This document shows positions 2 to 45,577 of a stretch of DNA of 45,577 nt, piece by piece. The translations under genes were made by a program, and so were the position numbers. The notes under the pieces were generated by a model. It saw only the letters and a list, made by a program, of their open reading frames with translations. It did no database searches and was not told the origin of the DNA. Within the stretch, counting starts at the first letter, position 1. Every line of letters starts with the position of its first letter. The stretch is from Candidatus Woesearchaeota archaeon (lineage in GTDB: Archaea; Nanobdellota; Nanobdellia; Woesearchaeales; UBA12501), in NCBI GenBank assembly GCA_013331695.1, contig DUFX01000036.1:1-45577 (forward strand), read 5' to 3'.

Positions 2-3000
2 CCGATCAACCCAGACTTCTAGTCGTTGTTGAATCGGAGCAATCCCTTCTCGTGCAGGACCCGAGGCATCTACAAACTCTTCTGCTTCTATGCGGGCTAA
101 ATTATTTTTTACACGATCTTCTACAGGAGGTCTTTTCGCGATCGGGGGCAGAACAACCTCTTCTTTCGCAACAATTTCAACACGGAATGCTTCTTCTCCT
201 TCATCTCTCACAATTCTCTGCACGAGCTCTCGTGATGCAGCTTCGCGTATCGCTTCTTCTTGTTCTGCAACTCTTGCATACGCTGGTTCTCCGGGAGCAG
301 GTTGTACAAGCATATCTGCATGCGCTTCACCAAGCGAACTGGTTGCAGGTCTTCGTACATCGGCGCTTGCGAGTGTTCCTTTTGCATTGCCCAAAGGATC
401 GATCGGTGTTTTTCCTAGTGCGCCCTGCTGTGCTTCTTCCATTACTCTCAAACCCATTGCAGGTTCGCTTTGTGCAAGCGCTTCAGGAATCGTGTGGCGT
501 GCATCGGTTGCAGCTTGCACCAGTTTCTGCTCGTCAATGATATTTCCGCTTGCATCTTGGATCACGCGTCTTCCGTCAGGTGTAATAACACAAACCGAAC
601 AAGCAAAGGCAGGCTGTCCCTGAAGATTTGCCATGACTTCTTCAGCAAAGGCTTGTGCTTTCTCAAACGCTTGCTTGATCAGCGTTGGTTTTGCTGTTGC
701 CAGTTGTTCTCCTGGCTTTAACTTCGCTTGGAGCAATTTCTCAAAATAGGTTTCGGTTGCAGCTTCAATGTCCAAATGTTTCACATACTCTTTTTCTGCT
801 TCTTTCAAACGGTTTGCAGCTCCAAGAATTTCATTTCCATCATCGCTGGTTCTTGAAATCACAAACCAGTCGTCTGCAGCCTGCAAGACTTTTTGTTTCT
901 GCTCACGTGTTCCAGCTAAACCAAGACCTTCAACTTTTCGCATTGCTCCGCCCAATCCTGTGCGTTGCTGTTGGTAAGCTGTTTCTGCCTCTGCAATCAA
1001 TTGCATGCGGGGAAGGACTTCTTGTCGCAGGCGTTCAACTTCTGCAGCATTTTCCTCCCGCGTTGCACGAACCAATGCTGCTCGAGCATCAACTAGATTG
1101 TTGCCCGCATTATCAGCAAACTTGGGCTTGAATCCATCAAATGCAAGATCTTTACGTGCAAAATCTACGACGCTTTCAACACCTCGAGAAACTACTTCCA
1201 GACCTTTTTTCAATGGTTGAAGCGCTTCACCTACCGGTTGTACAGTTGCACCTATTGCTTGCGTCACCGGTCTTATTTTATCTCCCGTTGCTGTTGCAAC
1301 TTTCACGAGTTTTTCAACGGTTCCTAGTTTCTCAGCTCGTCTTGCGAGTTGTACTGCATCAACAGCATCTTCTACAGCGTCAACAGCTCGCGCAAGTCTG
1401 ACTGCTCCTGCTCCTACTTTCACCGCAAGCCCTACAAAATCAAGCGGAGCAGTGAGATCAAGTCCTTTTGCCCCCACTTCTTTTCCAATGGTTCGTTGAG
1501 AAACCTTCCAGGAAAGCTCAGGCGTAAGTCCGATCTCCATCATATTGTCTTCTGCTTCTTTCAGAGCTTGCTGGAGTCGTTGATAGTCCGCAATCTTTCC
1601 ACGTGTGGGGCTGTATTTTTGTTGAAGCTCAACCAGTTTATCGTATGCAGCAGCAGGATCATTATGCGTTCTCAAAATCAAATCATCAATGTCGCGCATA
1701 TCTCTATCAAACAGTTCGTTGACATTCATTTCATGCCCTTCTGCAATGCGCGCATCATAGCGGAGATATCTGCTGTGGAACTGCGCCATGTCTCCAAGAT
1801 TAATTTCATCTTGTTCACCTCTTTCTTCTTCGCCTGCAAAACCAAAGGTCTCTCCCAAGGTTTCGCGCATCTGCTCACGACTCATTGTTCGAATTTGGTT
1901 TAAGCTGTACCCTTTTTTAGTCAGCAGCAAGGTAGCATACGCTGCATCACGGAGTTTGCGTGCTTCATCAGCAGCCATGCCTTCATAGCGTTTATCGAGC
2001 TCTTCCCAACTTACACCTTCAACTTTTGCTAGGGCATACAGGGAAAGCTGGCCAAGGAGATCATATTCTCGCTCAAGCGCTTCTTCAGAATTTTGATGGA
2101 CTACTTCTCTAACTTGTTCATTGAGTTTTTCAAACGTTGCCTGTGCAATGGCTTGGTCAACCAGCTCCTGTTTTCCTTTCATCGTTTCTGCTCGTAATAC
2201 AGGATCCTGGATCTGGTTTGCAAAAGCGAGTGCTTTATTGACTAAATTTGCCCGAGTTTCTTCATCAAGATTTCTTTGATCTGCCTGCTTCAGTGTTGCT
2301 TCTGCTCTCAGCATGTTTGCTTGATCGTCATCTGCTGTTGCCTGCACCAGACGGTCAGCGTAGAGCATTTCATCGTCATGTTTTCCAAGATCGCCGCTTA
2401 TCTTTGCAAGAACTACATAGTCTCCGTTGTATTTCTGCTGAATCTTAATAATCTCTTCCCCGCGTGCTGCATTTTGAGCTTCGATCTGAGCAATCTTTTC
2501 TCGTAGCGCTGCAAATTTCCAAGGAGGAACATCTTTTTCTTCTTCATTTCTTCTCGTGAGCGCATCAATCTGTGCTTTGATTCTCATAATCTGATTCTTT
2601 CCAACGTTGTTGTCATCAGAAATCCGCTGTGCCTTTATTCTATCTTGACCAATCTGTGCAAGTTCTTCATGAGGACGCTTCTCTAAGGGTTGATTTCTTT
2701 CAGCAGCCAGAGCCTGGCTTTCGAAAAGGCGCTGTTCTTCCAAATCTTGTCTCGTGAGTTCAGCAACCTCGCCTGCAAGTCGATCAAATTCTTTTTTGTT
2801 GCGCAGGATTGCGCGATCGAGTTCTTTGGTTGATTTCCCGTCTGCGCGTGCTCCGGCGGCAAGTGCCCGATACAAAGCGTTTTGTGCTTTAAGATCTTCC
2901 TGCATTAATGTCCGCTGTTCAGCTGCAAGTTTCAACGACGCTCCGACAGCCCTTGTACATGCTTCATTCAAGCATCGTCCATCAGGCCCTATTTTTGCTT

Positions 3001-4981
3001 CTGCATCAAACATTGTTCGCAGTTCTTTTTGCAGTTCCGTATGCATACCTTTCTTTCCGGTTTGCAGTCTAAAGCTTTGATCCAGCTGGCTTACATATTC
3101 TTGATTATCCAAATGTTCGAAATCAATGCCGGTGTGATAACGCTGAGGATTTCCTAGTAAATCTTTTCCTTTGAAGACAATACCCACCGCTTTCGTTTTT
3201 CCATTCACAGTTTCCTCATAGCGTCCGATGCCTGATTTTCCAACACCAAGGTACGTTTCTTCTCCTTCCACTCTTGTAAGGATGTCATGATCAAATCCTA
3301 GCTCAGTTCCTTTCACATCCATCAATGCTGCAAGATTCTGCAGGCTTGCTTGAGGAATATCCCCTTTCAGTTTTCCTTCGGTTGCATCATAATAGTATTC
3401 CATGGTCAGAGATGTTCCTAAAATGGTTCTTCCACGAGGAAGATCCATTCCCTCTTCACCTCCCACTTCTTCAAGTTCTAGCTCATCGCGTATTTTTTCC
3501 AGCGCAGCTTCCCTGCCAAAGACCACAACCTGCTTTTGAATCGTCACTGCAGCCTCTGCGGTTTGCTCGCATCCTTCGCACGAAACACTGAACACATCCT
3601 GACCTCTTGTTGTCGGAGGTGTTTTCACCAGTTTCGCATGCTCTTGGGTTGTCTCAGCTGTAACTTGAAGATCTTTATAGACCGCATGCCCCTGCATGGT
3701 GAAGCGTTCGTTTGGATTTTCTTTTGCGTTGTCAGTGGTATAATCAAAAATTGCATCATCTTCTTTTCCTGTGAACACAGGTTTGTCAGGATCAGCACCA
3801 AGAACCAAAGATCCATCCATCTTGTAGTTTCGCACTTCCACTTTTCCCTTTACATAGACATTAATCGAAGCTCCATCGGTTTTAATCCAAACTTCTGCCT
3901 GTTGTTCTTGTGATGCTCCTGGTGGATTTTCTCGGAGTCCTTTCGCAATCTGTTCTGCTTGATCATCTCTCACCGCAGGGGGGGTATGTTGTGATTCGGT
4001 GCTGAATGCATCGAGATGGGTTAAGACAAATTTACCAGCTTCACGAGACTGTCCTTGTGAAATGGTTCCCACACCCGTTCTTTTATCTACAAGGGTTGTT
4101 TCTTTTCCATCAAATCCATACGTGTACACTTCTTTTTTGCCAACGGTCTGAAAGCGTCCATCTACAAAGATCGCATCCGTATTCATCACTGCATTATCTG
4201 CTTTGATATTGCCTTGTGCATCAACACCTAAGATTCCTTCGCGATTTTCAAAGCGCATTTCTTGTCCATCAACCGTCAAGGTTCCGCTGGCTTGTCCTTC
4301 AACAATCATGCTTTCCTGTGTCACAATAACCTTTGCGTCACCGCTTGGCTCGATAATATGCTCTCTTCCCTGTTTATCTTTGACAAACAGCACGTTATCC
4401 TGCATGCGTGTTGCTTCAACGTTGTCGCCTTTCAATGCCAGTGTGTGTTCAGCATCTTCTTTTTTGTATTGGATATGGAATCCATCAGCTACAGCAGTGA
4501 TCCCGATTACTTGGCGATTGTTTTCATAATCCTTCAGATTGATAGGAACTCCTCCTGACGTTAAGGTTTCCTTTGCAGGATCGTAGACGACATTTCCTGC
4601 AGAAGCATCAAACTGATAGTTTGCTTTATAGCGCTGGCTGAAATAAGATTGTGCACCCTCACGTGCTTGCTGAATCATGCCGGGAGTTTGGAAATATTGC
4701 TGGCTTGCTTGCAGATCTCGTCCTGCATTTGAGGGATTGTTGAAGTATCTCAGATCCAGTGCTCCATTTTTTCCAATATTCGCATGATTTTGATAGTAAA
4801 GGGTTGCAAGCTGGTCTGTATATTGCGTGGTTAAGTATCGCTCTTGATCTTCCGGCTTCAAGTTCTTGAAATCTTGTTCGCTGAGATGTTCTCCGGGTTG
4901 TGGTTGTTGATCTTTCTCTTCAAGAGCGAACGTAGAGAACGATAACCCTGCCAACAGCATGCAAACTATTAAAATCCACAT
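2..4981 (-). CDS. giant secreted protein, 3' end beyond the window edge (at least 1660 aa)
   Basis: Absent from the ORF track because it has no stop inside the window. Hand translation of the minus strand from the ATG at 4981-4979 (MWILIVCMLLAGLSFSTFALEEKDQQ..., signal-peptide-like) stays open to position 2. I checked the frame at 4561, at 3061 and at the window start. The plus-strand ORFs at 52-4558 are short, overlapping and L/S/R/C-rich, as expected for antisense shadows. The N-terminal third looks beta-rich, followed by a long A/E/K/Q-rich helical region. No catalytic motif recognised. Confidence 0.75.
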   Translation of the reverse strand, partial: MWILIVCMLLAGLSFSTFALEEKDQQPQPGEHLSEQDFKNLKPEDQERYLTTQYTDQLATLYYQNHANIGKNGALDLRYFNNPSNAGRDLQASQQYFQTPGMIQQAREGAQSYFSQRYKANYQFDASAGNVVYDPAKETLTSGGVPINLKDYENNRQVIGITAVADGFHIQYKKEDAEHTLALKGDNVEATRMQDNVLFVKDKQGREHIIEPSGDAKVIVTQESMIVEGQASGTLTVDGQEMRFENREGILGVDAQGNIKADNAVMNTDAIFVDGRFQTVGKKEVYTYGFDGKETTLVDKRTGVGTISQGQSREAGKFVLTHLDAFSTESQHTPPAVRDDQAEQIAKGLRENPPGASQEQQAEVWIKTDGASINVYVKGKVEVRNYKMDGSLVLGADPDKPVFTGKEDDAIFDYTTDNAKENPNERFTMQGHAVYKDLQVTAETTQEHAKLVKTPPTTRGQDVFSVSCEGCEQTAEAAVTIQKQVVVFGREAALEKIRDELELEEVGGEEGMDLPRGRTILGTSLTMEYYYDATEGKLKGDIPQASLQNLAALMDVKGTELGFDHDILTRVEGEETYLGVGKSGIGRYEETVNGKTKAVGIVFKGKDLLGNPQRYHTGIDFEHLDNQEYVSQLDQSFRLQTGKKGMHTELQKELRTMFDAEAKIGPDGRCLNEACTRAVGASLKLAAEQRTLMQEDLKAQNALYRALAAGARADGKSTKELDRAILRNKKEFDRLAGEVAELTRQDLEEQRLFESQALAAERNQPLEKRPHEELAQIGQDRIKAQRISDDNNVGKNQIMRIKAQIDALTRRNEEEKDVPPWKFAALREKIAQIEAQNAARGEEIIKIQQKYNGDYVVLAKISGDLGKHDDEMLYADRLVQATADDDQANMLRAEATLKQADQRNLDEETRANLVNKALAFANQIQDPVLRAETMKGKQELVDQAIAQATFEKLNEQVREVVHQNSEEALEREYDLLGQLSLYALAKVEGVSWEELDKRYEGMAADEARKLRDAAYATLLLTKKGYSLNQIRTMSREQMRETLGETFGFAGEEERGEQDEINLGDMAQFHSRYLRYDARIAEGHEMNVNELFDRDMRDIDDLILRTHNDPAAAYDKLVELQQKYSPTRGKIADYQRLQQALKEAEDNMMEIGLTPELSWKVSQRTIGKEVGAKGLDLTAPLDFVGLAVKVGAGAVRLARAVDAVEDAVDAVQLARRAEKLGTVEKLVKVATATGDKIRPVTQAIGATVQPVGEALQPLKKGLEVVSRGVESVVDFARKDLAFDGFKPKFADNAGNNLVDARAALVRATREENAAEVERLRQEVLPRMQLIAEAETAYQQQRTGLGGAMRKVEGLGLAGTREQKQKVLQAADDWFVISRTSDDGNEILGAANRLKEAEKEYVKHLDIEAATETYFEKLLQAKLKPGEQLATAKPTLIKQAFEKAQAFAEEVMANLQGQPAFACSVCVITPDGRRVIQDASGNIIDEQKLVQAATDARHTIPEALAQSEPAMGLRVMEEAQQGALGKTPIDPLGNAKGTLASADVRRPATSSLGEAHADMLVQPAPGEPAYARVAEQEEAIREAASRELVQRIVRDEGEEAFRVEIVAKEEVVLPPIAKRPPVEDRVKNNLARIEAEEFVDASGPAREGIAPIQQRLEVWVDR

Positions 4982-5033
4982 AACTACTCTTTCCTTTCCT
5001 CTTTCCTTTCTTTGGGAGTTATTCATTTGTTGG

Positions 5034-6119
5034 TTATTCAACATAAAAGATCGCTCGTTCTTGCGTGCTTAATCCTCGCGTGTCGCTCGCTCGAATTACC
5101 ACTGCTTTTCTTCCCTTGATCTGCGGTGTAAAACTGAAGATTCCATCGGGATTGATGGGAATTTCAGGATTGTCGGAAACAAACAGGACTGCATCCCCTT
5201 CTTTATCAAAGGCTTCCAGTTCGTACTCAAATTTTACACCCTTCTTTAACGTAAAATCCTTGAGATTTTTGATGCGAGGTGCCGTGTTGCTTCGTGATTG
5301 TCTTTCACTGATCGTATTTTTTACAGCAAACCAGAAGATGAACGGAGCCTTGTTGTTCAGTTTGGTTTTCTCGTCATAGATTGAGTATGCAGTGCTCTCT
5401 TCATCATACGCAATGATTGAGATTATGACATCATATGCTTTGTTCAAATTCATAAAGTCAGAGAGATGCGATTTCTCAGGTTCAACAGCAATAAGATTGC
5501 TCATTTTTTCTGCAATTTCAAGTATGGTTCCTAATCGAAGCGGAATGGTTTTTGAAAGCGCGCCAAGGAGTTGCTCTCCTTCTTCTGTAATAATTTGCAC
5601 AGGGTAGTTTACCGCAATCGTGACCTCATCTTTTTTAATAAAGGCCTGTGCCCGCGGTTCTTTTTCTTGGATAACGATTCCTTGTGCAGTAAACTCGCCC
5701 CAGTCCGTGCATAAGGGAAGATTCTTTTCAATATAATGTGCGAGTTGTTCCTGCATCTCAACCAGGGGCGGCATGGTCTTCTGGCCTTCGATCACATAAT
5801 ACGGAAGCACACGCTCCTGCGTCAGGAGATTTTTCTCAAACATAGCAGGCTGTTTAAATTCCGCATCGTCATAGAATCTTCCTCCCTGGTGGCCAAACAA
5901 GTACAGCCCTGGAATAAGGATTTGTTCAAGACACTCCTGGACATAGACTTCAACTTGATGTTTGATTTGGTAGTTCTCGCTTTGTTTGTCTTCAACTTGC
6001 GTTTGGTCTGAGAAATAATACCATGCAACACCTACCAAAATCAAGAGGATCAGGCCTAGGATGATAAAGACGGTGACTTGTGCTTTTTTGTTTGCTTGAG
6101 TTTGTTTTGTTTGATTCAT
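5034..6119 (-). CDS. membrane-anchored hypothetical protein with a C-terminal Ig/cadherin-like beta domain
   Basis: 361-aa ORF with an ATG start. N-terminal TM helix (VTVFIILGLILLILVGVAWYYF). The C-terminal ~80 aa (FEYELEAFDKEGDAVLFVSDNPEIPINPDGIFSFTP...RASD) resembles cadherin-like/Ig-like repeats. Its start overlaps the stop of the upstream RHH gene by 4 nt. Confidence 0.7.
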   Translation of the reverse strand: MNQTKQTQANKKAQVTVFIILGLILLILVGVAWYYFSDQTQVEDKQSENYQIKHQVEVYVQECLEQILIPGLYLFGHQGGRFYDDAEFKQPAMFEKNLLTQERVLPYYVIEGQKTMPPLVEMQEQLAHYIEKNLPLCTDWGEFTAQGIVIQEKEPRAQAFIKKDEVTIAVNYPVQIITEEGEQLLGALSKTIPLRLGTILEIAEKMSNLIAVEPEKSHLSDFMNLNKAYDVIISIIAYDEESTAYSIYDEKTKLNNKAPFIFWFAVKNTISERQSRSNTAPRIKNLKDFTLKKGVKFEYELEAFDKEGDAVLFVSDNPEIPINPDGIFSFTPQIKGRKAVVIRASDTRGLSTQERAIFYVE

Positions 6120-6379
6120 ATACTTCCTCTGTCTCTCATGGTGTTGACTCCTTGTTTCTTACACTGTTTCTTGAGCAGTTCAAGGGCCTGTTCTTTGGTT
6201 TTAGAAGAAGGGGGTAATCTTGCAATATCTCTAAGAATCTCGTCTTGTTCAAGCTGCAGTAATTTTTCTCGAATCGCATCACGAATAAGCTCGGTTCGGG
6301 TGCTATACCGGTTTTTGATGAGTCTTTCATCTACTTCACTCAGAATTTTGTCCTCGAGCTTCAAGCTGATAATTTTCAA
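6116..6379 (-). CDS. ribbon-helix-helix (CopG/Arc/MetJ-type) DNA-binding protein
   Basis: 87 aa. The N-terminus, (M)KIISLKLEDKILSEVDERLIKNRYSTRTELIRDAIREKL, fits the RHH beta-strand plus two-helix pattern. The start codon is TTG. The TATA-like CTTTAAATAA (rc of 6405-6414) lies 26 nt upstream. It overlaps the next gene by 4 nt, which suggests one operon. Confidence 0.6.
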   Translation of the reverse strand: MKIISLKLEDKILSEVDERLIKNRYSTRTELIRDAIREKLLQLEQDEILRDIARLPPSSKTKEQALELLKKQCKKQGVNTMRDRGSI

Positions 6380-6404
6380 GGTAATACTATGTATATACTA
6401 AGTA

Positions 6405-6414
6405 TTATTTAAAG
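6405..6414 (-). promoter_or_regulatory. TATA box for the RHH / membrane protein / giant protein operon
   Basis: The minus strand reads CTTTAAATAA, 26 nt upstream of the TTG start at 6379. This fits a leaderless archaeal promoter. Confidence 0.45.
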
Positions 6415-6488
6415 ATTGAGGTGTTTTGGGCTCAAAAGGGCTCTGACAGGGTTAAACCCTATTTTTTTGAGAATTTTGTGTTACAACC

Positions 6489-6773
6489 TCATATGTCACT
6501 GGCGATATCCAACATTTTCTTAATGAAGATCTCTATCTCTTTTAATTTTTCTTTATCTTTATTCAAAGAGATTTGAAGACCATAGGAAGCTGGTTTTGTG
6601 ATAATCCAACCCTCTTTAATCAATTCTTGGCAGATCTTTTTTACATCTTTTCCAAGATGCGAAGGAAATCCACACGTTACGGTGTCGAAGGGTGTGTGCA
6701 CCCCGCCAAGAATCTTCTTTCTGCGAAGATGATACAGAATCGTTGCCTTTATTTTGTCTTCTTCAGTGATCAT
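6489..6773 (-). CDS. small hypothetical protein, possible winged-helix
   Basis: Internal ATG of the 151-aa track ORF (MITEEDKIKATILYHLRRKKILGG...KEGWIITKPASYGLQISLN). An AT-rich TATA-like sequence (rc of ~6797-6808) lies ~25 nt upstream. The longer N-terminal extension overlaps the divergent promoter and looks non-coding. Confidence 0.45.
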   Translation of the reverse strand: MITEEDKIKATILYHLRRKKILGGVHTPFDTVTCGFPSHLGKDVKKICQELIKEGWIITKPASYGLQISLNKDKEKLKEIEIFIKKMLDIASDI

Positions 6774-6842
6774 CAAAGAGGTGAATCCTTGTTCATTTTT
6801 AAATATTCTTATTTTTGAAATATAAAAACATAAAGAGAAACA

Positions 6843-6850
6843 TTTATATA
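6843..6850 (+). promoter_or_regulatory. TATA box (TTTATATA) for the 6874 gene
   Basis: TTTATATA lies 24 nt upstream of the ATG at 6874. Confidence 0.5.
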
Positions 6851-6873
6851 CTTGGTATACGCGATGGACCCTC

Positions 6874-7197
6874 ATGGAACCAGAAACCGTATTCGTCGAA
6901 ATTTTTGGAAAGAATCCATTAATGAGAATACTTGATTTTCTCATTACGTATCAAGCTTTTGACTACCCCCTTACCGAAATAGCCAAAAATGCAGGGGTCA
7001 GTTACTCTACACTTCAAACCTTTTGGGGAAATCTCGAGAAAAATGGTATCGTGATCAAAACACGTCGTGTCGGGAAATCAGATCTCTTTAAATTAAACAC
7101 CAAGAATCCGGCTGTAAAACAGTTAATCAAACTTGATTGGAATCTGATTAAAGGATCTGATGAAGTTGAAGATCGAGAAATCGAACTCGTTCACTAA
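6874..7197 (+). CDS. winged-helix transcriptional regulator
   Basis: 107 aa. ILDFLITYQAFDYPLTEIAKNAGVSYSTLQTFWGNLEKNGIVIKTRRVGKSDLFKLN fits an HTH, a wing and a beta hairpin. Confidence 0.65.
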   Translation: MEPETVFVEIFGKNPLMRILDFLITYQAFDYPLTEIAKNAGVSYSTLQTFWGNLEKNGIVIKTRRVGKSDLFKLNTKNPAVKQLIKLDWNLIKGSDEVEDREIELVH

Positions 7198-7286
7198 TCC
7201 ACCTTTATGCTGGAGCTTGGCATGGAAGAATTCTAGACCTCTTCTCTCTGTCCATTCTTACAACTTTTTATCGTAAAACAACAACA

Positions 7287-7294
7287 TTTATATA
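7287..7294 (+). promoter_or_regulatory. TATA box (TTTATATA) for vapBC
   Basis: TTTATATA lies 26 nt upstream of the ATG at 7320. This argues against the track start at 7299. Confidence 0.5.
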
Positions 7295-7319
7295 TTATAT
7301 GTTGTATATAGTATACACT

Positions 7320-7559
7320 ATGGCAATTGCGCAGGTCACACAGGCAGGGAACGTCTTTATTCCTAAACAATGGCGCGAGGAACTCGGCATTATACTTAAC
7401 AGTAGTGTTCTCCTGGAAAAGAAGAACCATTGCATCATTATTCAGCCTTTAAGGAAAAAAAATCTCCAAGATGCATTCAAAGACATTGACGAAGAGATCA
7501 AAAGAAAGAAAATTCACTTTACACTTAAAGAAGCTATCCAGGATGATTTCTATGGTTAA
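7320..7559 (+). CDS. vapB: AbrB/SpoVT-fold antitoxin (VapB-like)
   Basis: MAIAQVTQAGNVFIPKQWREELGI...IIIQPL matches the swapped-hairpin AbrB/SpoVT signature. The gene is small and its stop overlaps the PIN gene start (tATGGTTAA). Confidence 0.7.
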   Translation: MAIAQVTQAGNVFIPKQWREELGIILNSSVLLEKKNHCIIIQPLRKKNLQDAFKDIDEEIKRKKIHFTLKEAIQDDFYG

Positions 7560-7917
7560 ATTTATTGACGCCAATATTTTTATTCAACGCTGGAGTAATC
7601 CTCAAATAGCAGCTTTTCTCAATACGCTTAATCCTGAAGAACATGCAACTTCAGTTCTTGTTCTTGCAGAAGTCTATGATAAAATGGAGCTCAAAAAACT
7701 GACCCACGCCTTTTCTTACATTCGTGGGCTTATGGGCGCTCTTACAGTTTTTCCCATTATCCAAGACGATCTTTTTTGGGCGATTAAGAATCCACTTCCT
7801 CTGCGTATCAATGATCGTTTACATCTCGCTGTTATGAAAAGAAACAATATACAGGTTCTTATCTCTTATGATGCCGATTTTGATCATGATAAAAGCATGA
7901 TACGAGAAGAGCTCTAA
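7552..7917 (+). CDS. vapC: PIN-domain toxin (VapC-like ribonuclease)
   Basis: MVKFIDANIFIQRW... carries the first PIN acidic residue near position 6. Later acidic positions are present (LAEVYDKM, SYDADFDH). 121 aa, translationally coupled to the upstream antitoxin. Confidence 0.75.
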   Translation: MVKFIDANIFIQRWSNPQIAAFLNTLNPEEHATSVLVLAEVYDKMELKKLTHAFSYIRGLMGALTVFPIIQDDLFWAIKNPLPLRINDRLHLAVMKRNNIQVLISYDADFDHDKSMIREEL

Positions 7918-7952
7918 AACAAATTCATTAACATTCATACGATATCAATTTC

Positions 7953-8573
7953 TTAATCGACCTTCACGCCCAACCCTTTCAACTCCTCCTTCACCTGTTC
8001 AGGGCTTTTAAAAAGAATTCCTTTGATTCCTACTTTAACTGCACCGTCAACATTCTCCTGTTTGTCATCAATAAAAACGACTTCTTCAGGTTTTCTCTCA
8101 AGACGTTGCAACAAAATCTCATAGATTTTCTGCTCAGGCTTTGCAGTGTGTTCTTCAAATGAAAAGACTTTCACGTCAAAGAGCTTTCCGAGATCTTTTT
8201 CTTTGAATACCTGTTCCATAGGTTTTTCTGCATTCGATAAAAATCCCACTTTATAATTCTGCTTGCGAAGTATCTCAATAAGAGCAAACATTTCAGGGAA
8301 GGGTTTATAGGCATATCGTAAAGCATTTGCATAGAGCGATTCGTTTTTTGAGAACCCCTTAGGCGCGATGTTCAAAGCTTTCCGGACGATTGTCCAGAAC
8401 TCATCTTCACTCATGGTTCCTTTATGCATCTCAACGGTATGTTGCCGGTATACGCTTCTCACTTCTTCAAGAGGCACGCCTAATTTTTCAGCCCAGTATT
8501 GATACATCCCCCTAGCTGGAGATTCAATCAACACCCCACCCCAGTCGAATACTACTGCTTTGATTGTCGTCAT
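7953..8573 (-). CDS. HAD-superfamily hydrolase (subfamily IA-like)
   Basis: AVVFDWGGVLIE is a motif I variant. FLSNA is motif II. VVFIDDKQENVDGA is motif III/IV. Confidence 0.85.
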   Translation of the reverse strand: MTTIKAVVFDWGGVLIESPARGMYQYWAEKLGVPLEEVRSVYRQHTVEMHKGTMSEDEFWTIVRKALNIAPKGFSKNESLYANALRYAYKPFPEMFALIEILRKQNYKVGFLSNAEKPMEQVFKEKDLGKLFDVKVFSFEEHTAKPEQKIYEILLQRLERKPEEVVFIDDKQENVDGAVKVGIKGILFKSPEQVKEELKGLGVKVD

Positions 8574-8678
8574 GTGTTGTTCAATAGAGGCAGTTCTATA
8601 TATCTTTTTCTCTTCTCTTTTCTCCCCCCTTCTTCTTCACCACTAACTTAATAAAGAGATTCCTGCTTCGTCAAGTTC

Positions 8679-9650
8679 ATGGTTAAACCCAACCAAGAAA
8701 AACCATCATCCCCGCGCTGGGCATGGATTACGGTTATTATCATTCTTGTGGTACTAGGACTTTTGAGTATGATCATTGCGGGTGTCATCGGCATCTTTGT
8801 CGGTGCAGGTTCATCAAGTTCAAGTATTGAAAAAGTGAATGGCGCCGGAAATGTTGCTGTTATTAAAGTTGAAGGTCCGATTGTTTCCACCTCCGTTCCG
8901 AGTTTTGGCGGTGCGAGAGCTGCTGTCTCTGAAGATATTGTCAAACTGATTGAGAAGGCATCAAAAGACAACAGCATCAAAGCCATTGTGCTTGCTATTA
9001 ATACTCCGGGAGGAAGCGCTGTTGCTTCTGACGAAATTTCCAGTGCGCTCAACGATGCCACCAAGCCAACGGTTGCTTGGATCAAAGATATGGGAACTTC
9101 AGGAGGCTATTGGGTTGCAAGTTCAACCGATTACATTGTTGCACATCCTGCTTCGATCACTGCATCGATCGGCGTGATTGGTTCCTATCTTGAATTTGCA
9201 GGATTTCTTGAAGATTATAATGTGACGTATCGCAGACTGGTTTCAGGAAAATACAAAGATATGGGTCATCCGTTTAAGGAGATGACTGAGGAAGAAGAAA
9301 TGATTTTCCAGCAAACCCTTGACGATCTCCACGAACTTTTTATCCAGCACGTTGCAGAAGGAAGGAGTATGCCTGCTGAAAATGTACGCAATCTTGCAAC
9401 AGGGGCATTTATGTCTGGAAAGAAAGCATACGAACTGGGACTCGTTGACCAGCTCGGCGGGCAGAAAGAAGTGAAAGCATATCTTCAGCAGAAGCTGAAT
9501 ACCTCTGTGGAATTTGTGCAGTACCGACAGCCAAAAACATTTTTTCAAACCTTGGTAGAAGGGTTTTCTGAATCAGGATTTCAGGTAGGCAGGGGCATTG
9601 GTTCTTCGCTGGTTGAGCAGGAGCGGCAACCGAGTGTGATGCTTTCTTAA
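8679..9650 (+). CDS. sppA: signal peptide peptidase SppA (peptidase S49, 36K type)
   Basis: N-terminal TM helix, then S49 motifs: AIVLAINTPGGSAVASDEI, GGYWVASSTDYIVAHPASITASIGVIG and KDMGHPF. Confidence 0.85.
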   Translation: MVKPNQEKPSSPRWAWITVIIILVVLGLLSMIIAGVIGIFVGAGSSSSSIEKVNGAGNVAVIKVEGPIVSTSVPSFGGARAAVSEDIVKLIEKASKDNSIKAIVLAINTPGGSAVASDEISSALNDATKPTVAWIKDMGTSGGYWVASSTDYIVAHPASITASIGVIGSYLEFAGFLEDYNVTYRRLVSGKYKDMGHPFKEMTEEEEMIFQQTLDDLHELFIQHVAEGRSMPAENVRNLATGAFMSGKKAYELGLVDQLGGQKEVKAYLQQKLNTSVEFVQYRQPKTFFQTLVEGFSESGFQVGRGIGSSLVEQERQPSVMLS

Positions 9651-23216: not shown

Positions 23217-23341
23217 CGCCGCCACTGGGATTTGAACCCAGATATCCTTGCGGAAACAGGATCTTTACGGACCGGCACAGTCATGGGCGGCTGTTGCCTG
23301 CGTTAGCAATCCTGCGCAATACCGGATTATGCGATGGCGGC
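23217..23341 (-). tRNA. tRNA-Ser(GCU) with a ~41-nt intron at the canonical 37/38 position
   Basis: Hand fold: acceptor GCCGCCA/TGGCGGC. D arm GCAT-AATCCGGTA-TTGC. Anticodon stem CAGGA/TCCTG interrupted after TTGCTA (anticodon at 23305-23307, intron ~23263-23303). Long variable arm TTTCCGCAAGGATAT. T arm CTGGG-TTCAAAT-CCCAG. Discriminator G. A TATA box (TTTATAAA, 23378-23385) lies 37-44 nt upstream of the tRNA 5' end. Confidence 0.8.
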
Positions 23342-42899: not shown

Positions 42900-43053
42900 T
42901 CCTTGTTCTGAGGTTCGGCATTTTATAAAGGTTGTGGGGTTGTTTTATGGGTCTCTCTTAACCCTCTTTGTGCCACTAACGCCCAAACTTTTAAATACCC
43001 CTTGGAAATCCCTTTTTAAGTCAATGATGGATAGGGGATTACGGGGGGTTGTT

Positions 43054-43857
43054 ATGGATCGATTGGATGAACTGGAAGCAAAGAGCATCTATATCCTCAG
43101 AGAGGCCTATAAAAAGTTTGGAAAATTAGGCATCCTTTGGTCCATGGGCAAGGATTCTACGGTTCTGGTCTGGCTTGCAAAAAAAGCCTTTTTCGGCTCG
43201 GTTCCTTTTCCGGTTATTCATATTGATACAACCTTCAAATTTCCTCAAATGTATGCATTCAGAACCAGCCTTGCAAAGGAATGGAATCTGAACTTAATGA
43301 TTGGAACAAATAAAGAAGCAATTTCGCGAGGAGTCAATTATCAAAACCACACTGCACTGCAAGTATGCGACGAATTGAAAACCCAAGCTCTCAGACAATT
43401 TGTTGACCAGCACAAATTTGAAGGACTTATTTTAGCCATTCGCGCGGATGAAGAAGGTTCGCGATCCAAAGAACGTTTCTTTAGCAGAAGAAATACTGAT
43501 TTTGAATGGAATTATGCAGAACAGCCTCCTGAATTATGGGATCAGTTTAACACCGGATTCAAAAAAGGAGAGCACATTCGCGTGCATCCTATTCTGCATT
43601 GGACCGAGCTTGATGTCTGGGAGTATATTCACAGAGAAAACATTCCGCTTGTTGATCTCTACTTTGCAAAAAATGGAAAACGCTACCGCAGTTTAGGTTG
43701 CATGCCGATTACATTTCCTATTAACTCTGATGCAGATACCGTTGATAAGATCATTGATGAACTCAAACACACCAAAACAGCTGAGCGGGAAGGAAGAGGG
43801 CAGGATAAAGAAGATCAGTATGCACTCCAAAAGCTCAGAGCAAAGGGGTATATGTGA
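43054..43857 (+). CDS. cysD: sulfate adenylyltransferase subunit 2 (CysD, PAPS-reductase fold)
   Basis: MDRLDELEAKSIYILREAYKKF...SMGKDSTVLVWLAKKAF...RADEEGSRSKERFFS...RYRSLGCMPIT...REGRGQDKE aligns by eye along the whole length of E. coli CysD. The start is chosen by that alignment. Other ATGs lie at 43024 and 43027. Confidence 0.9.
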   Translation: MDRLDELEAKSIYILREAYKKFGKLGILWSMGKDSTVLVWLAKKAFFGSVPFPVIHIDTTFKFPQMYAFRTSLAKEWNLNLMIGTNKEAISRGVNYQNHTALQVCDELKTQALRQFVDQHKFEGLILAIRADEEGSRSKERFFSRRNTDFEWNYAEQPPELWDQFNTGFKKGEHIRVHPILHWTELDVWEYIHRENIPLVDLYFAKNGKRYRSLGCMPITFPINSDADTVDKIIDELKHTKTAEREGRGQDKEDQYALQKLRAKGYM

Positions 43858-44621
43858 TGGGATCAGAAACAGAATCAAAAATAGAACCATGCGATGCGCG
43901 TGTCATCAACTTTTTACTGGGGACACGAAGATGCGGCACCAGTGTACTTGCAGCCATCCTCCACGAGTGCGGCGCAGACTTTGGGGCAGTCAGAACAACA
44001 CCTGAATATCATCGCTCAGGATATATGGAAGATTCTCGCATTGGAAAAGCAGAGAGCTACTTTAGAAAATATTATGAACTCAGAAAAACGTTTCCTTTTC
44101 TTCCGGTGTGCTGTATCAACGGGATGAGAAAACGTGCCATCTCTATTTTCAAAACAGCAGTGCAGGACAATCGTGCATGGGTGAAGAACGGCGCTCTTAT
44201 TTCCTGTTTAGCAGATCTCCAAAACTCACTGCAGTTCCAGCCAAAAGTTCTTGGCATTGTGCGTCATCCTGTGGAAAATGTAGCAAGCTTTTCGAACAGC
44301 AAGGGAGTCTTCGGCATGGAAAGCGACGTCAGCACCATGTTTCAGCGCTATTACGACAGCAATCAAAAACTCCTGTTGCACATCGAAAACTATGGCGGCT
44401 GTCTGATCTCCTTTCACGATCTGACTAATAGAAAAAAGACCAACTGGGCAGATACGATTGTAAAGGCCTTTCCTCAATTCAAAAAACACGATCTGATCAA
44501 GGCAAGAGGCAAGCTGGTTGATCAACGAAGCAGGAATCTTGGAAAACAACAGATCATCTATCTTCCTGAAGAATATCAGCAATTCTGGAATTTCTTGCAG
44601 GAAAAAACAGGATCGAAATGA
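43857..44621 (+). CDS. sulfotransferase-family protein (putative PAPS-dependent)
   Basis: VINFLLGTRRCGTSVLAAIL resembles the 5'-phosphosulfate-binding loop (xRxGT[ST]) of sulfotransferases. Size is ~250 aa. Its ATG overlaps the cysD stop (TGATG), and it sits between cysD and cysN. Confidence 0.6.
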   Translation: MGSETESKIEPCDARVINFLLGTRRCGTSVLAAILHECGADFGAVRTTPEYHRSGYMEDSRIGKAESYFRKYYELRKTFPFLPVCCINGMRKRAISIFKTAVQDNRAWVKNGALISCLADLQNSLQFQPKVLGIVRHPVENVASFSNSKGVFGMESDVSTMFQRYYDSNQKLLLHIENYGGCLISFHDLTNRKKTNWADTIVKAFPQFKKHDLIKARGKLVDQRSRNLGKQQIIYLPEEYQQFWNFLQEKTGSK

Positions 44622-44657
44622 TGAAACCATCACGAAACAAACAACCATGAAACAACC

Positions 44658-45577
44658 ATGAAACAAACAGACAAACAGACAACCAATCCCCAATCCATCA
44701 AACTGGTCTTTGTTGGCAATGTTGACCACGGCAAGTCTACCTTAATCGGAAGACTTCTCGAAGGAACCAACACTCTGCCGGAAAGTGCAGTCCAAAAAGT
44801 AAAAAAATTCTGTGATCAGCAAGGAAGACCATTTGAACACGCTTTTTTGCTGGATGCACTCCAAGAAGAACAAGAACAAGGGATTACGATTGATATCACC
44901 AAAATTGAGTTCTCAACCGGCAAGGGTGAAGAGGATCGGCATTTCACGATTATTGATGCTCCGGGCCACAAAGAATTTTTGAAAAATATGATCAGCGGAT
45001 CTGCACAGGCAGAAGCAGCCATTCTTTTGGTTGACGCGCAAGAAGGCCTTGGCGACCAGACTCGGAAGCATGCCTATCTCCTTTCGCTTCTCGGCATCTC
45101 GCAAATCTTTGTGATGATCAATAAAATGGATCTTGTCCACTTCTCACAGGAGCGCTTCAATCAGCTCAAAGAAGAGCTTGCTACCTACTTGCATCGCATC
45201 AAGCTTTCTGCCAAGTGTTACATCCCTATTTCAGCGAAATGTGGTGACAACGTCATTACGGTCTCCAACGCCATGCCTTGGTACACCGGAAAAACTGTTC
45301 TCGCCTCGCTTCGTGAGTTTGAAAAACCGAAAGATCTCCAGGAAAAGCCCCTTCGTTTTCCGATTCAAGACGTCTATAAATTCGATCACCGCAGAATTCT
45401 TGCTGGAAGAATTGAATCAGGAAGTATCAGCGTTGGTGATTCAATCCTTTTTCTGCCTTCTCAAAAGCGGTCAAAAGTAAAATCACTTGAATATCTCCAA
45501 GAAAAAGATCGAAAGAAAAAAGAAGTTGCAGGCCATGTTGTGGGTATCACGATTGAAGACGAGTTTTATTTCAAGCG
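44658..45577 (+). CDS. cysN: sulfate adenylyltransferase subunit 1 (CysN GTPase), 3' end beyond the window edge
   Basis: Absent from the ORF track because it is open at the window end. Hand translation: MKQTDKQTTNPQSIKLVFVGNVDHGKSTLIGRLL...LLDALQEEQEQGITID...IIDAPGHKEFLKNMISG...MINKMD...ISAKCGDNV...FPIQDVYKFD. G1-G4 motifs and CysN-specific contexts are present. Confidence 0.9.
   Translation, partial: MKQTDKQTTNPQSIKLVFVGNVDHGKSTLIGRLLEGTNTLPESAVQKVKKFCDQQGRPFEHAFLLDALQEEQEQGITIDITKIEFSTGKGEEDRHFTIIDAPGHKEFLKNMISGSAQAEAAILLVDAQEGLGDQTRKHAYLLSLLGISQIFVMINKMDLVHFSQERFNQLKEELATYLHRIKLSAKCYIPISAKCGDNVITVSNAMPWYTGKTVLASLREFEKPKDLQEKPLRFPIQDVYKFDHRRILAGRIESGSISVGDSILFLPSQKRSKVKSLEYLQEKDRKKKEVAGHVVGITIEDEFYFK

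Follow-up and report, generated by a model that had tools for sequence, protein, structure and literature searches.

Sulfate activation dedicated to sulfation is already known in bacteria. In Sinorhizobium meliloti, the NodP and NodQ proteins are dedicated copies of CysD and CysN-CysC that act with the sulfotransferase NodH in the sulfation of Nod factor (Roche et al. 1991, as cited in PMC4216712), and in Xanthomonas oryzae the CysD- and CysNC-type proteins RaxP and RaxQ provide 3'-phosphoadenosine 5'-phosphosulfate (PAPS) beside the sulfotransferase RaxST (PMC4216712). We analyzed a stretch of 45,577 nucleotides (the window) from a Candidatus Woesearchaeota archaeon (GenBank assembly GCA_013331695.1, contig DUFX01000036.1), near the end of which a gene for a 254-residue protein is wedged between cysD and cysN. 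Judged by sequence motifs and a predicted structure, this protein belongs to the PAPS-dependent sulfotransferase superfamily, as a divergent member that had not been annotated before, and its gene, together with cysD and a cysN fused to a degenerate and a canonical adenosine 5'-phosphosulfate (APS) kinase domain, probably constitutes a self-contained operon dedicated to sulfation.

The archaeal cassette resembles NodPQ/NodH in having a CysD/CysN-type ATP sulfurylase whose CysN is fused to an APS kinase, together with a genetically linked, putative PAPS-dependent sulfotransferase. The likeness would extend to a use in sulfation rather than in cysteine synthesis, NodH acting on a glycoconjugate and the archaeal acceptor being assigned by context only. 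In rhizobia the set exists as a second copy, in addition to a housekeeping assimilatory pathway, whereas the archaeon has no detectable assimilatory pathway. Further differences are the archaeal host, the position of the sulfotransferase gene between cysD and cysN, the extra degenerate kinase-like domain of CysN and the placement of the sulfotransferase family below threshold for the Pfam families that contain NodH. With RaxPQ/RaxST the cassette shares a PAPS supply of CysD and CysNC type; RaxST, however, sulfates a Tyr of a secreted peptide and its operon includes an exporter, and the archaeal locus shows neither a peptide of this kind nor an exporter. The closest CysD and CysN are encoded in a Clostridium tyrobutyricum cluster (L014; loci and contigs carry our own numbers, prefixed L and C), which is composed of cysC, genes for AprA-like and AprB-like proteins and an ABC transporter, cysD and cysN, with no sulfotransferase gene. 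The two clusters also have in common a degenerate APS-kinase-like C-terminal domain on CysN, but in the archaeal cassette cysC is fused to cysN, a sulfotransferase gene is present, and genes for reductase-like proteins and a transporter are missing.

The preliminary description of this DNA had taken the middle gene for a sulfotransferase, and profile-to-profile and structure comparisons support this assignment. A word-indexed search returned four close relatives (50–88% identity) and an exhaustive HMMER search returned 82 relatives at E ≤ 1e-3, 74 of which were aligned to obtain the conservation figures for the family. R136 is invariant in this alignment, while R25, G27, E58, K110 and S144 are nearly so; Pfam matches among the 74 are to Sulfotransfer_3 (19), Sulfotransfer_1 (7) and Stf0 (7). 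When compared by hhalign with the 26 sulfotransferase candidates that we collected from the phylum (23 of them Pfam-verified; see below), the family matched with a probability of 94.6% and an E-value of 7e-8 over 170 columns, with both predicted nucleotide-binding motifs in register and RHPVENVAS aligned to the consensus RDPxDxxxS. Against the sequences of the PDB the family profile gave sub-threshold N-terminal matches only, to Stf0 (E 0.065) and to the CurM sulfotransferase (E 0.42). In these alignments RRCGTS lies opposite the PRSGST loops of both proteins, to which the archaeal segment TRRCGTS is nearly identical, and RHPVENVAS lies opposite the 3'-phosphate-binding segment of CurM, the two segments (VRHPVENVAS and VRHPYSVIES) being nearly identical. 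The close family is found in 3 of the 401 genomes sampled from the host phylum, and a search with a seven-sequence alignment found no relative among the GTDB species representatives.

In the AlphaFold (AF2) model of the 254-residue protein, which has a predicted local distance difference test score (pLDDT) of 91.8, a strand-loop-helix carries R25, and R136 closes a strand ahead of the helix that contains S144. A 5'-phosphosulfate-binding motif carried on a strand-loop-helix is a hallmark of sulfotransferases (PMC10951654). Members of the superfamily also consist of a single α/β domain with a central parallel sheet, and the model is consistent with solved structures of this kind. The eight top Foldseek matches in the PDB are all sulfotransferases (OLS-ST, CurM-ST, TPST2 and Stf1), with E-values from 9.5e-5 to 3.6e-3. 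CurM and OLS-ST (4gbm, 4gox) and the mycobacterial Stf0 and Stf1 (1tex, 2zq5) are the best matches in both fold and sequence, at identities of 12–19% and template modeling scores (TM-scores) of about 0.5. The acceptors of CurM and OLS-ST are β-hydroxyacyl chains bound to acyl carrier protein, and that of Stf0 is trehalose; these acceptors fit neither the gene context of the archaeal protein nor that of its relatives. With the tyrosylprotein sulfotransferases (TPSTs) of human and tick (PMC10951654) the protein shares the 5'-phosphosulfate- and 3'-phosphate-binding motifs, the fold match to TPST2 and a conserved Arg/Glu/Lys set, in which E58 and K110 correspond to E99 and K158 of TPST2 by spacing alone. 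No Walker-A GK[ST] sequence is present, the loop GTRRCGTS being of the sulfotransferase type. The protein is predicted to be catalytically active and, with no N-terminal hydrophobic segment discernible by eye, is read as soluble.

The assignment of the flanking genes to ATP sulfurylase is straightforward. CysD scores 360 bits against NF003587, for which the cut-off is 195, and 137 bits against PAPS_reduct. The cysN fragment in the window matches GTP_EFTU (158 bits) and domain 2, along with the CysN and CysNC models at 256–277 bits, scores that stay under the full-length cut-offs because a scaffold gap truncates the gene at the window end. Contig C62 is 51,583 bases long, and the window covers its first 45,577 bases up to this gap, represented by NN at 45578–45579, beyond which the CysN reading resumes in another frame. 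The N-terminal part of CysN is 92% identical to the N-terminus of an intact 832-residue orthologue (L100), and alignment with an intact 824-residue orthologue (L010) places residues 308–332 of the latter in the gap; with about 25 codons hidden there, the change of frame does not represent a real frameshift.

No APS kinase had been visible in the window, and the preliminary description had guessed that one might be fused to CysN beyond its end. The continuation indeed carries two PF01583 matches in one open frame, and in the orthologues L010 and L100 the domains GTP_EFTU, GTP-eEF1A_C and two copies of APS_kinase are found in one protein. APS kinases were recognized by the Walker A motif GLSGSGKS[ST] and the LDGDN motif, both of which the second domain displays and the first does not. 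The first domain is predicted to be inactive since GLPGCGKEE and LDAATMR replace the canonical motifs, and may have a structural, channeling or allosteric role. It is not an archaeal invention, as CysN proteins of Clostridium and Melainabacteria-like type, including that of UBA9579, carry the same GLPGCGK[EN]E / LD[AS][AS]xxRF domain, accompanied by a separate canonical CysC; the degenerate domain lies at 7279–7809 in L014 and at 7354–7896 in L016. Several other DPANN (Diapherotrites, Parvarchaeota, Aenigmarchaeota, Nanoarchaeota and Nanohaloarchaeota) genomes encode a CysN with a weaker APS-kinase match, followed by a separate, higher-scoring CysC.

The features of the locus are collected in Table 1. 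The cysD stop codon and the start codon of the middle open reading frame (ORF) share one A (TGATG), and a spacer of 36 nucleotides (44622–44657) separates the latter from cysN, so that the three genes form a tight unit. These ORFs, their overlap and gap, the length of about 254 residues and the RRCGTS motif had all been read correctly in the preliminary description. The same order of three genes is found in independent assemblies, with an 824-residue CysN fusion in L010 and an 832-residue fusion in L100, L101 and L102, and this recurrence argues for a conserved operon rather than a chance juxtaposition. The genes are probably co-transcribed, and the candidate TATA box lies within the 154-nucleotide divergent spacer between serS and cysD. 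The other neighbors of the cassette are small genes and a gene for a Cys-rich membrane protein without a Pfam match. This conserved protein, encoded on the minus strand at 47140–48273 of C62, has an N-terminal membrane anchor and many Cys residues, and its gene runs convergently toward the cassette at each of the four syntenic loci, namely those of this genome, L010, L100 and L099.

Table 1. Positions of the predicted features of the cysD–sulfotransferase–cysN cassette, in window numbering continued past the scaffold gap into contig C62.
Feature	Position	Strand	Remarks
Candidate archaeal TATA box TTTTAAATA	42989-42997	+	57 nt 5' of the cysD ATG; read from sequence
cysD	43054-43857	+	ATG 43054, TGA 43855-43857; 267 aa; small (PP-loop) subunit of GTP-dependent ATP sulfurylase
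Divergent PAPS-type sulfotransferase, predicted	43857-44621	+	254 aa; ATG 43857-43859
5'-phosphosulfate-binding loop R24-R25-C26-G27-T28-S29 (GTRRCGTS), predicted	43926-43943	+	Between strand 16-22 and helix 28-37 of the model
3'-phosphate-binding motif R136-H-P-V-E-N-V-A-S144 (R-x7-S), predicted	44262-44288	+	End of strand 128-135, helix 138-147
cysN, cut by the window end	44658-45577	+	ATG 44658; GTPase domain and domain II; ATP sulfurylase large subunit
CysN domain III and two APS-kinase domains	C62 45580-47091, then stop codon	+	Window numbering
Degenerate APS-kinase-like domain	C62 45979-46356	+	PF01583 132.7 bits; GLPGCGKEE, LDAATMR
Canonical APS kinase	C62 46582-47028	+	PF01583 222 bits; GLSGSGKSS, IDGDNLRHG

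A role in sulfation was proposed at the outset in place of assimilation, and the gene content of the genome agrees with this: the operon has its own APS kinase, and the assimilatory genes are missing from both the operon and the rest of the assembly, which amounts to 1.38 Mb and is 87% complete. Neither CysH nor a NIR_SIR sulfite-reductase domain was found in it. PAPS_reduct-type matches are limited to CysD and, on C32, a Cys-rich PP-loop protein; the latter was rejected as a PAPS reductase, its sequence being read as of the tRNA-thiolation type. A weak APS_kinase match on C71 was likewise rejected, its sequence being read as that of an SRP54-type GTPase, and a search of the genome with Sulfotransfer_1 returned nothing. 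Because this genome is incomplete, the phylum was also examined for NIR_SIR, which is present in none of the 48 other genomes with an APS kinase, all at least 90% complete. With both PAPS/APS reductase and sulfite reductase missing from the genome, the cassette appears to be non-assimilatory, its PAPS having no reductive fate.

The relatives of the sulfotransferase are found in differing genetic surroundings. A relative of 50% identity (L007) follows a 930-residue Sat-APS-kinase fusion (a non-homologous PAPS synthase) and a CysQ-like phosphatase, in a cluster that also contains NeuB, CMP-sugar, glycosyltransferase, flippase and deacetylase genes. The fusion (L007 4413–7205) has PK, PUA_2, ATP-sulfurylase and APS_kinase domains, its N-terminal part being pyruvate-kinase-like, and proteins of about 915 residues that match it are encoded at L132, L138 and L140. 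A relative of 70% identity (L099) occupies the same serS-flanked slot as the gene studied here, but there cysD and cysN have given way to a permease of the TauE/TSUP family and a free-standing APS kinase (1839–4056), which indicates that the cassette has been remodeled in place among close relatives; there is no ATP sulfurylase on this 5.8-kb contig. One sulfotransferase family is thus surrounded by three differing sets of PAPS genes, namely CysD with the CysN-APS kinase fusion (own genome, L010 and L100), the Sat-APS-kinase fusion with the CysQ-like phosphatase (L007), and APS kinase with TauE (L099), and this pattern of gene displacement argues for a functional link of the sulfotransferase to PAPS.

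More distant family members are positioned among genes of glycan synthesis. In L095 a glycosyltransferase family 2 (GT2) gene begins 5 nucleotides 3' of the sulfotransferase gene; in L096 the sulfotransferase is surrounded by NeuB, epimerases, GT1, GT2 and a GDP-mannose dehydratase; and in L154 it lies among four GT4/GT1 genes and methyltransferases. L097 (genome G225, 4145–9180) encodes an 882-residue fusion of the sulfotransferase domain to GT4/GT1 and, adjacent to it, a second fusion of 796 residues with the order Sulfotransfer_1-Sulfotransfer_3-GT2, both adjoining an ABC-2 polysaccharide exporter, an APS kinase, cysD and cysN. Three further distant members are on contigs too short to give a context.

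An APS kinase is present in 49 of the 401 sampled genomes of the phylum (about 12%). We surveyed 10 kb on each side of it in the 48 other positive genomes, and sulfotransferase candidates were found within this distance at 21 of the 49 loci, that is, in 20 of the 48 other genomes. The candidates number 26, with Sulfotransfer_3 matched in 23 and Sulfotransfer_1 in 21, and the modules that recur are CysQ-like/CysD/CysN(C')/CysC/sulfotransferase and Sat/APS kinase/sulfotransferase. Among the 133 ORFs within 4 kb of the candidates, the commonest are GT1/GT4 glycosyltransferases (10), methyltransferases (9) and sugar epimerases or dehydratases (7), joined by sugar nucleotidyltransferases (5), GT2 (5), Wzx-type flippases (5) and polysaccharide deacetylases (3). 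Three ORFs of 433–441 residues (L127 9742–11064, L134 9800–11098 and L142 1141–2454) have BLAST matches to both APS kinase and CysQ-like (Inositol_P) proteins, which suggests that they encode fusions of a PAPS-forming kinase with a PAP-removing phosphatase.

In the mechanism that we propose, CysD and CysN would act as a GTP-driven ATP sulfurylase converting sulfate and ATP to APS, and the canonical C-terminal kinase domain of the CysN fusion would phosphorylate APS to PAPS. The 254-residue soluble enzyme would then move the sulfo group from PAPS to an acceptor hydroxyl in the cytoplasm. As acceptor we favor, on balance, a sugar in a glycan precursor, lipid-linked or nucleotide-activated, that subsequently reaches the cell surface. 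Sulfation is placed on the cytoplasmic precursor, before export, because the enzyme is predicted to be soluble and PAPS is cytoplasmic. A surface glycan had been among the acceptors named in the preliminary description; the glycan context of the relatives (L007, L095, L096, L097 and L154) and the phylum survey agree with that choice, but the archaeon's own cassette has no glycan gene beside it.

Several observations weigh against a glycan-sulfating operon. The 254-residue protein is below all Pfam and NCBIfam cut-offs, with an E-value of 0.12 and 13 bits against a cut-off of 27 for Sulfotransfer_3 and no NCBIfam match, and its Foldseek TM-scores are only 0.45–0.55, with adenylate kinases, which are P-loop kinases, appearing from rank 9. 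Kinase matches are expected for the sulfotransferase fold, which is related to that of P-loop proteins. No glycosyltransferase or other glycan gene is found beside the cassette in this genome or at the three closest orthologous loci. The genome is 87% complete, so that what is absent from it is provisionally absent. The assembly contains no CysQ-type PAP phosphatase (Inositol_P), a DHH-type pAp phosphatase not having been searched for; the latter type has reportedly been described for Pyrococcus. As to sulfate uptake, SulP was not found in the assembly, nor were a convincing TauE or a homologue of the SBF-family gene of L007. The TauE and CysQ-like genes found beside relatives likewise had no homologue there. 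Weak TauE matches at about 2200–2770 of C68 were rejected, since the encoded small membrane protein has two ExGDK[TS] motifs and was read as UPF0016/GDT1-type.

If the lack of glycan genes at the locus is taken at face value, the same cassette could serve a different acceptor, such as a membrane lipid or glycolipid, a small metabolite or, in the manner of RaxST or TPST, a Tyr of a secreted peptide or protein sulfated before export; we regard this as unlikely. Apart from the gene neighborhood, it draws on the presence of TPST2 among the top fold matches, although the polyketide and mycobacterial sulfotransferases match equally well, and on the resemblance by spacing alone of R25, E58 and K110 to the TPST2 catalytic set R78, E99 and K158. 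One candidate Tyr substrate would be the convergently encoded Cys-rich membrane protein, which terminates in the acidic sequence GDFYTEEE. The Tyr of this sequence is a Phe in the L099 orthologue, and Tyr sulfation of this protein was set aside because the residue is not conserved; the synteny of its gene, confined to close relatives, is uninformative on function. Non-glycan acceptors in general are disfavored by the distant relatives, all of which, where the context is informative, lie among glycosyltransferases.

Ordinary assimilatory activation, in which the 13% of the genome missing from the assembly would hold the reductive genes and the middle gene would have been inserted incidentally, is very unlikely. 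The closest bacterial cluster, that of C. tyrobutyricum, is assimilatory in layout, and a published survey took sat, cysC and cysN of DPANN archaea as leading from sulfate to sulfite (PMC7906910), which, with the incompleteness of the assembly, would suit this interpretation. It is opposed by the lack of CysH and NIR_SIR in what has been assembled and by the lack of NIR_SIR across the 48 more complete APS-kinase-positive genomes of the phylum. Moreover, at least three independent assemblies retain the sulfotransferase gene in the operon with its translational coupling, and its association with APS kinase persists even at loci where other genes stand in for cysDN or cysDN is missing. A further notion is that the product of the middle gene has the sulfotransferase fold but no catalysis, being a PAPS/PAP-binding regulator or scaffold of the sulfate-activating complex, or else that it is a P-loop-kinase-like enzyme. 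The position of the gene between those of two sulfurylase subunits, the sub-threshold Pfam score, the adenylate kinases among the lower fold matches and a catalytic base that is not established would all be compatible with this notion. We nonetheless hold it to be most improbable, given the sulfotransferase-type loop in place of a Walker-A GK[ST], the conservation of E58 and K110 besides the nucleotide-binding residues, and the occurrence of homologues far from any sulfurylase, in glycosyltransferase clusters and, in one case, fused to GT4.

The ATP sulfurylase genes themselves appear to have a bacterial source. CysD is 67% identical to its C. tyrobutyricum counterpart and 57% identical to the CysD encoded by a DPANN genome from the same order, the corresponding values for CysN being 56% and 45%, and the best 80 CysNC relatives among the GTDB species representatives are all bacterial. 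The closeness of the Clostridium-type cysD-cysN(C')/cysC set points to horizontal acquisition of cysD and cysN from bacteria. Elsewhere in the window are an Orc1/Cdc6 gene and, on the minus strand at 23217–23341, a 125-nucleotide tRNA that scores 44.3 bits with Rfam, is without an ARAGORN report and is consistent with an intron-containing archaeal tRNA. The genomes listed for the host phylum range from 0.5 to 1.7 Mb.

Relative to the bacterial systems, three aspects of this locus are new: a divergent, unannotated clade of predicted sulfotransferases; a triple fusion of CysN, pseudo-kinase and kinase, with the sulfotransferase gene wedged between the genes of the sulfurylase subunits; and a dedicated sulfation cassette in a DPANN archaeon without a detectable assimilatory pathway. 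We know of no enzymes that have been assigned to the sulfation of the known archaeal N-glycans, and according to a 2024 review the putative sulfotransferases of archaea, among them those of Woesearchaeota and Pacearchaeota, are yet to be characterized (PMC11625862). More tentatively, PAPS-dependent sulfation of surface glycans might recur among DPANN archaea as an accessory trait, with the 254-residue protein founding an unrecognized clade that has an acceptor specificity of its own. A groundwater survey had read DPANN sat, cysC and cysN as sulfate reduction toward sulfite (PMC7906910); the data presented here favor sulfation over that reading. Since none of the 48 genomes has a sulfite reductase and the activation genes often lie beside sulfotransferase and glycan genes, sat, cysN and cysC in this phylum would represent cell-surface chemistry rather than sulfur cycling, and the published interpretation would, if this is correct, need revision. 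Expression of this small, self-contained cassette as a single unit could yield PAPS together with a candidate archaeal sulfotransferase. Sulfate esters at the surface, if they are indeed made, would matter for host attachment or for the binding of minerals and cations, and for symbionts that live attached to a host a sulfated surface would be a testable candidate determinant of the interaction.

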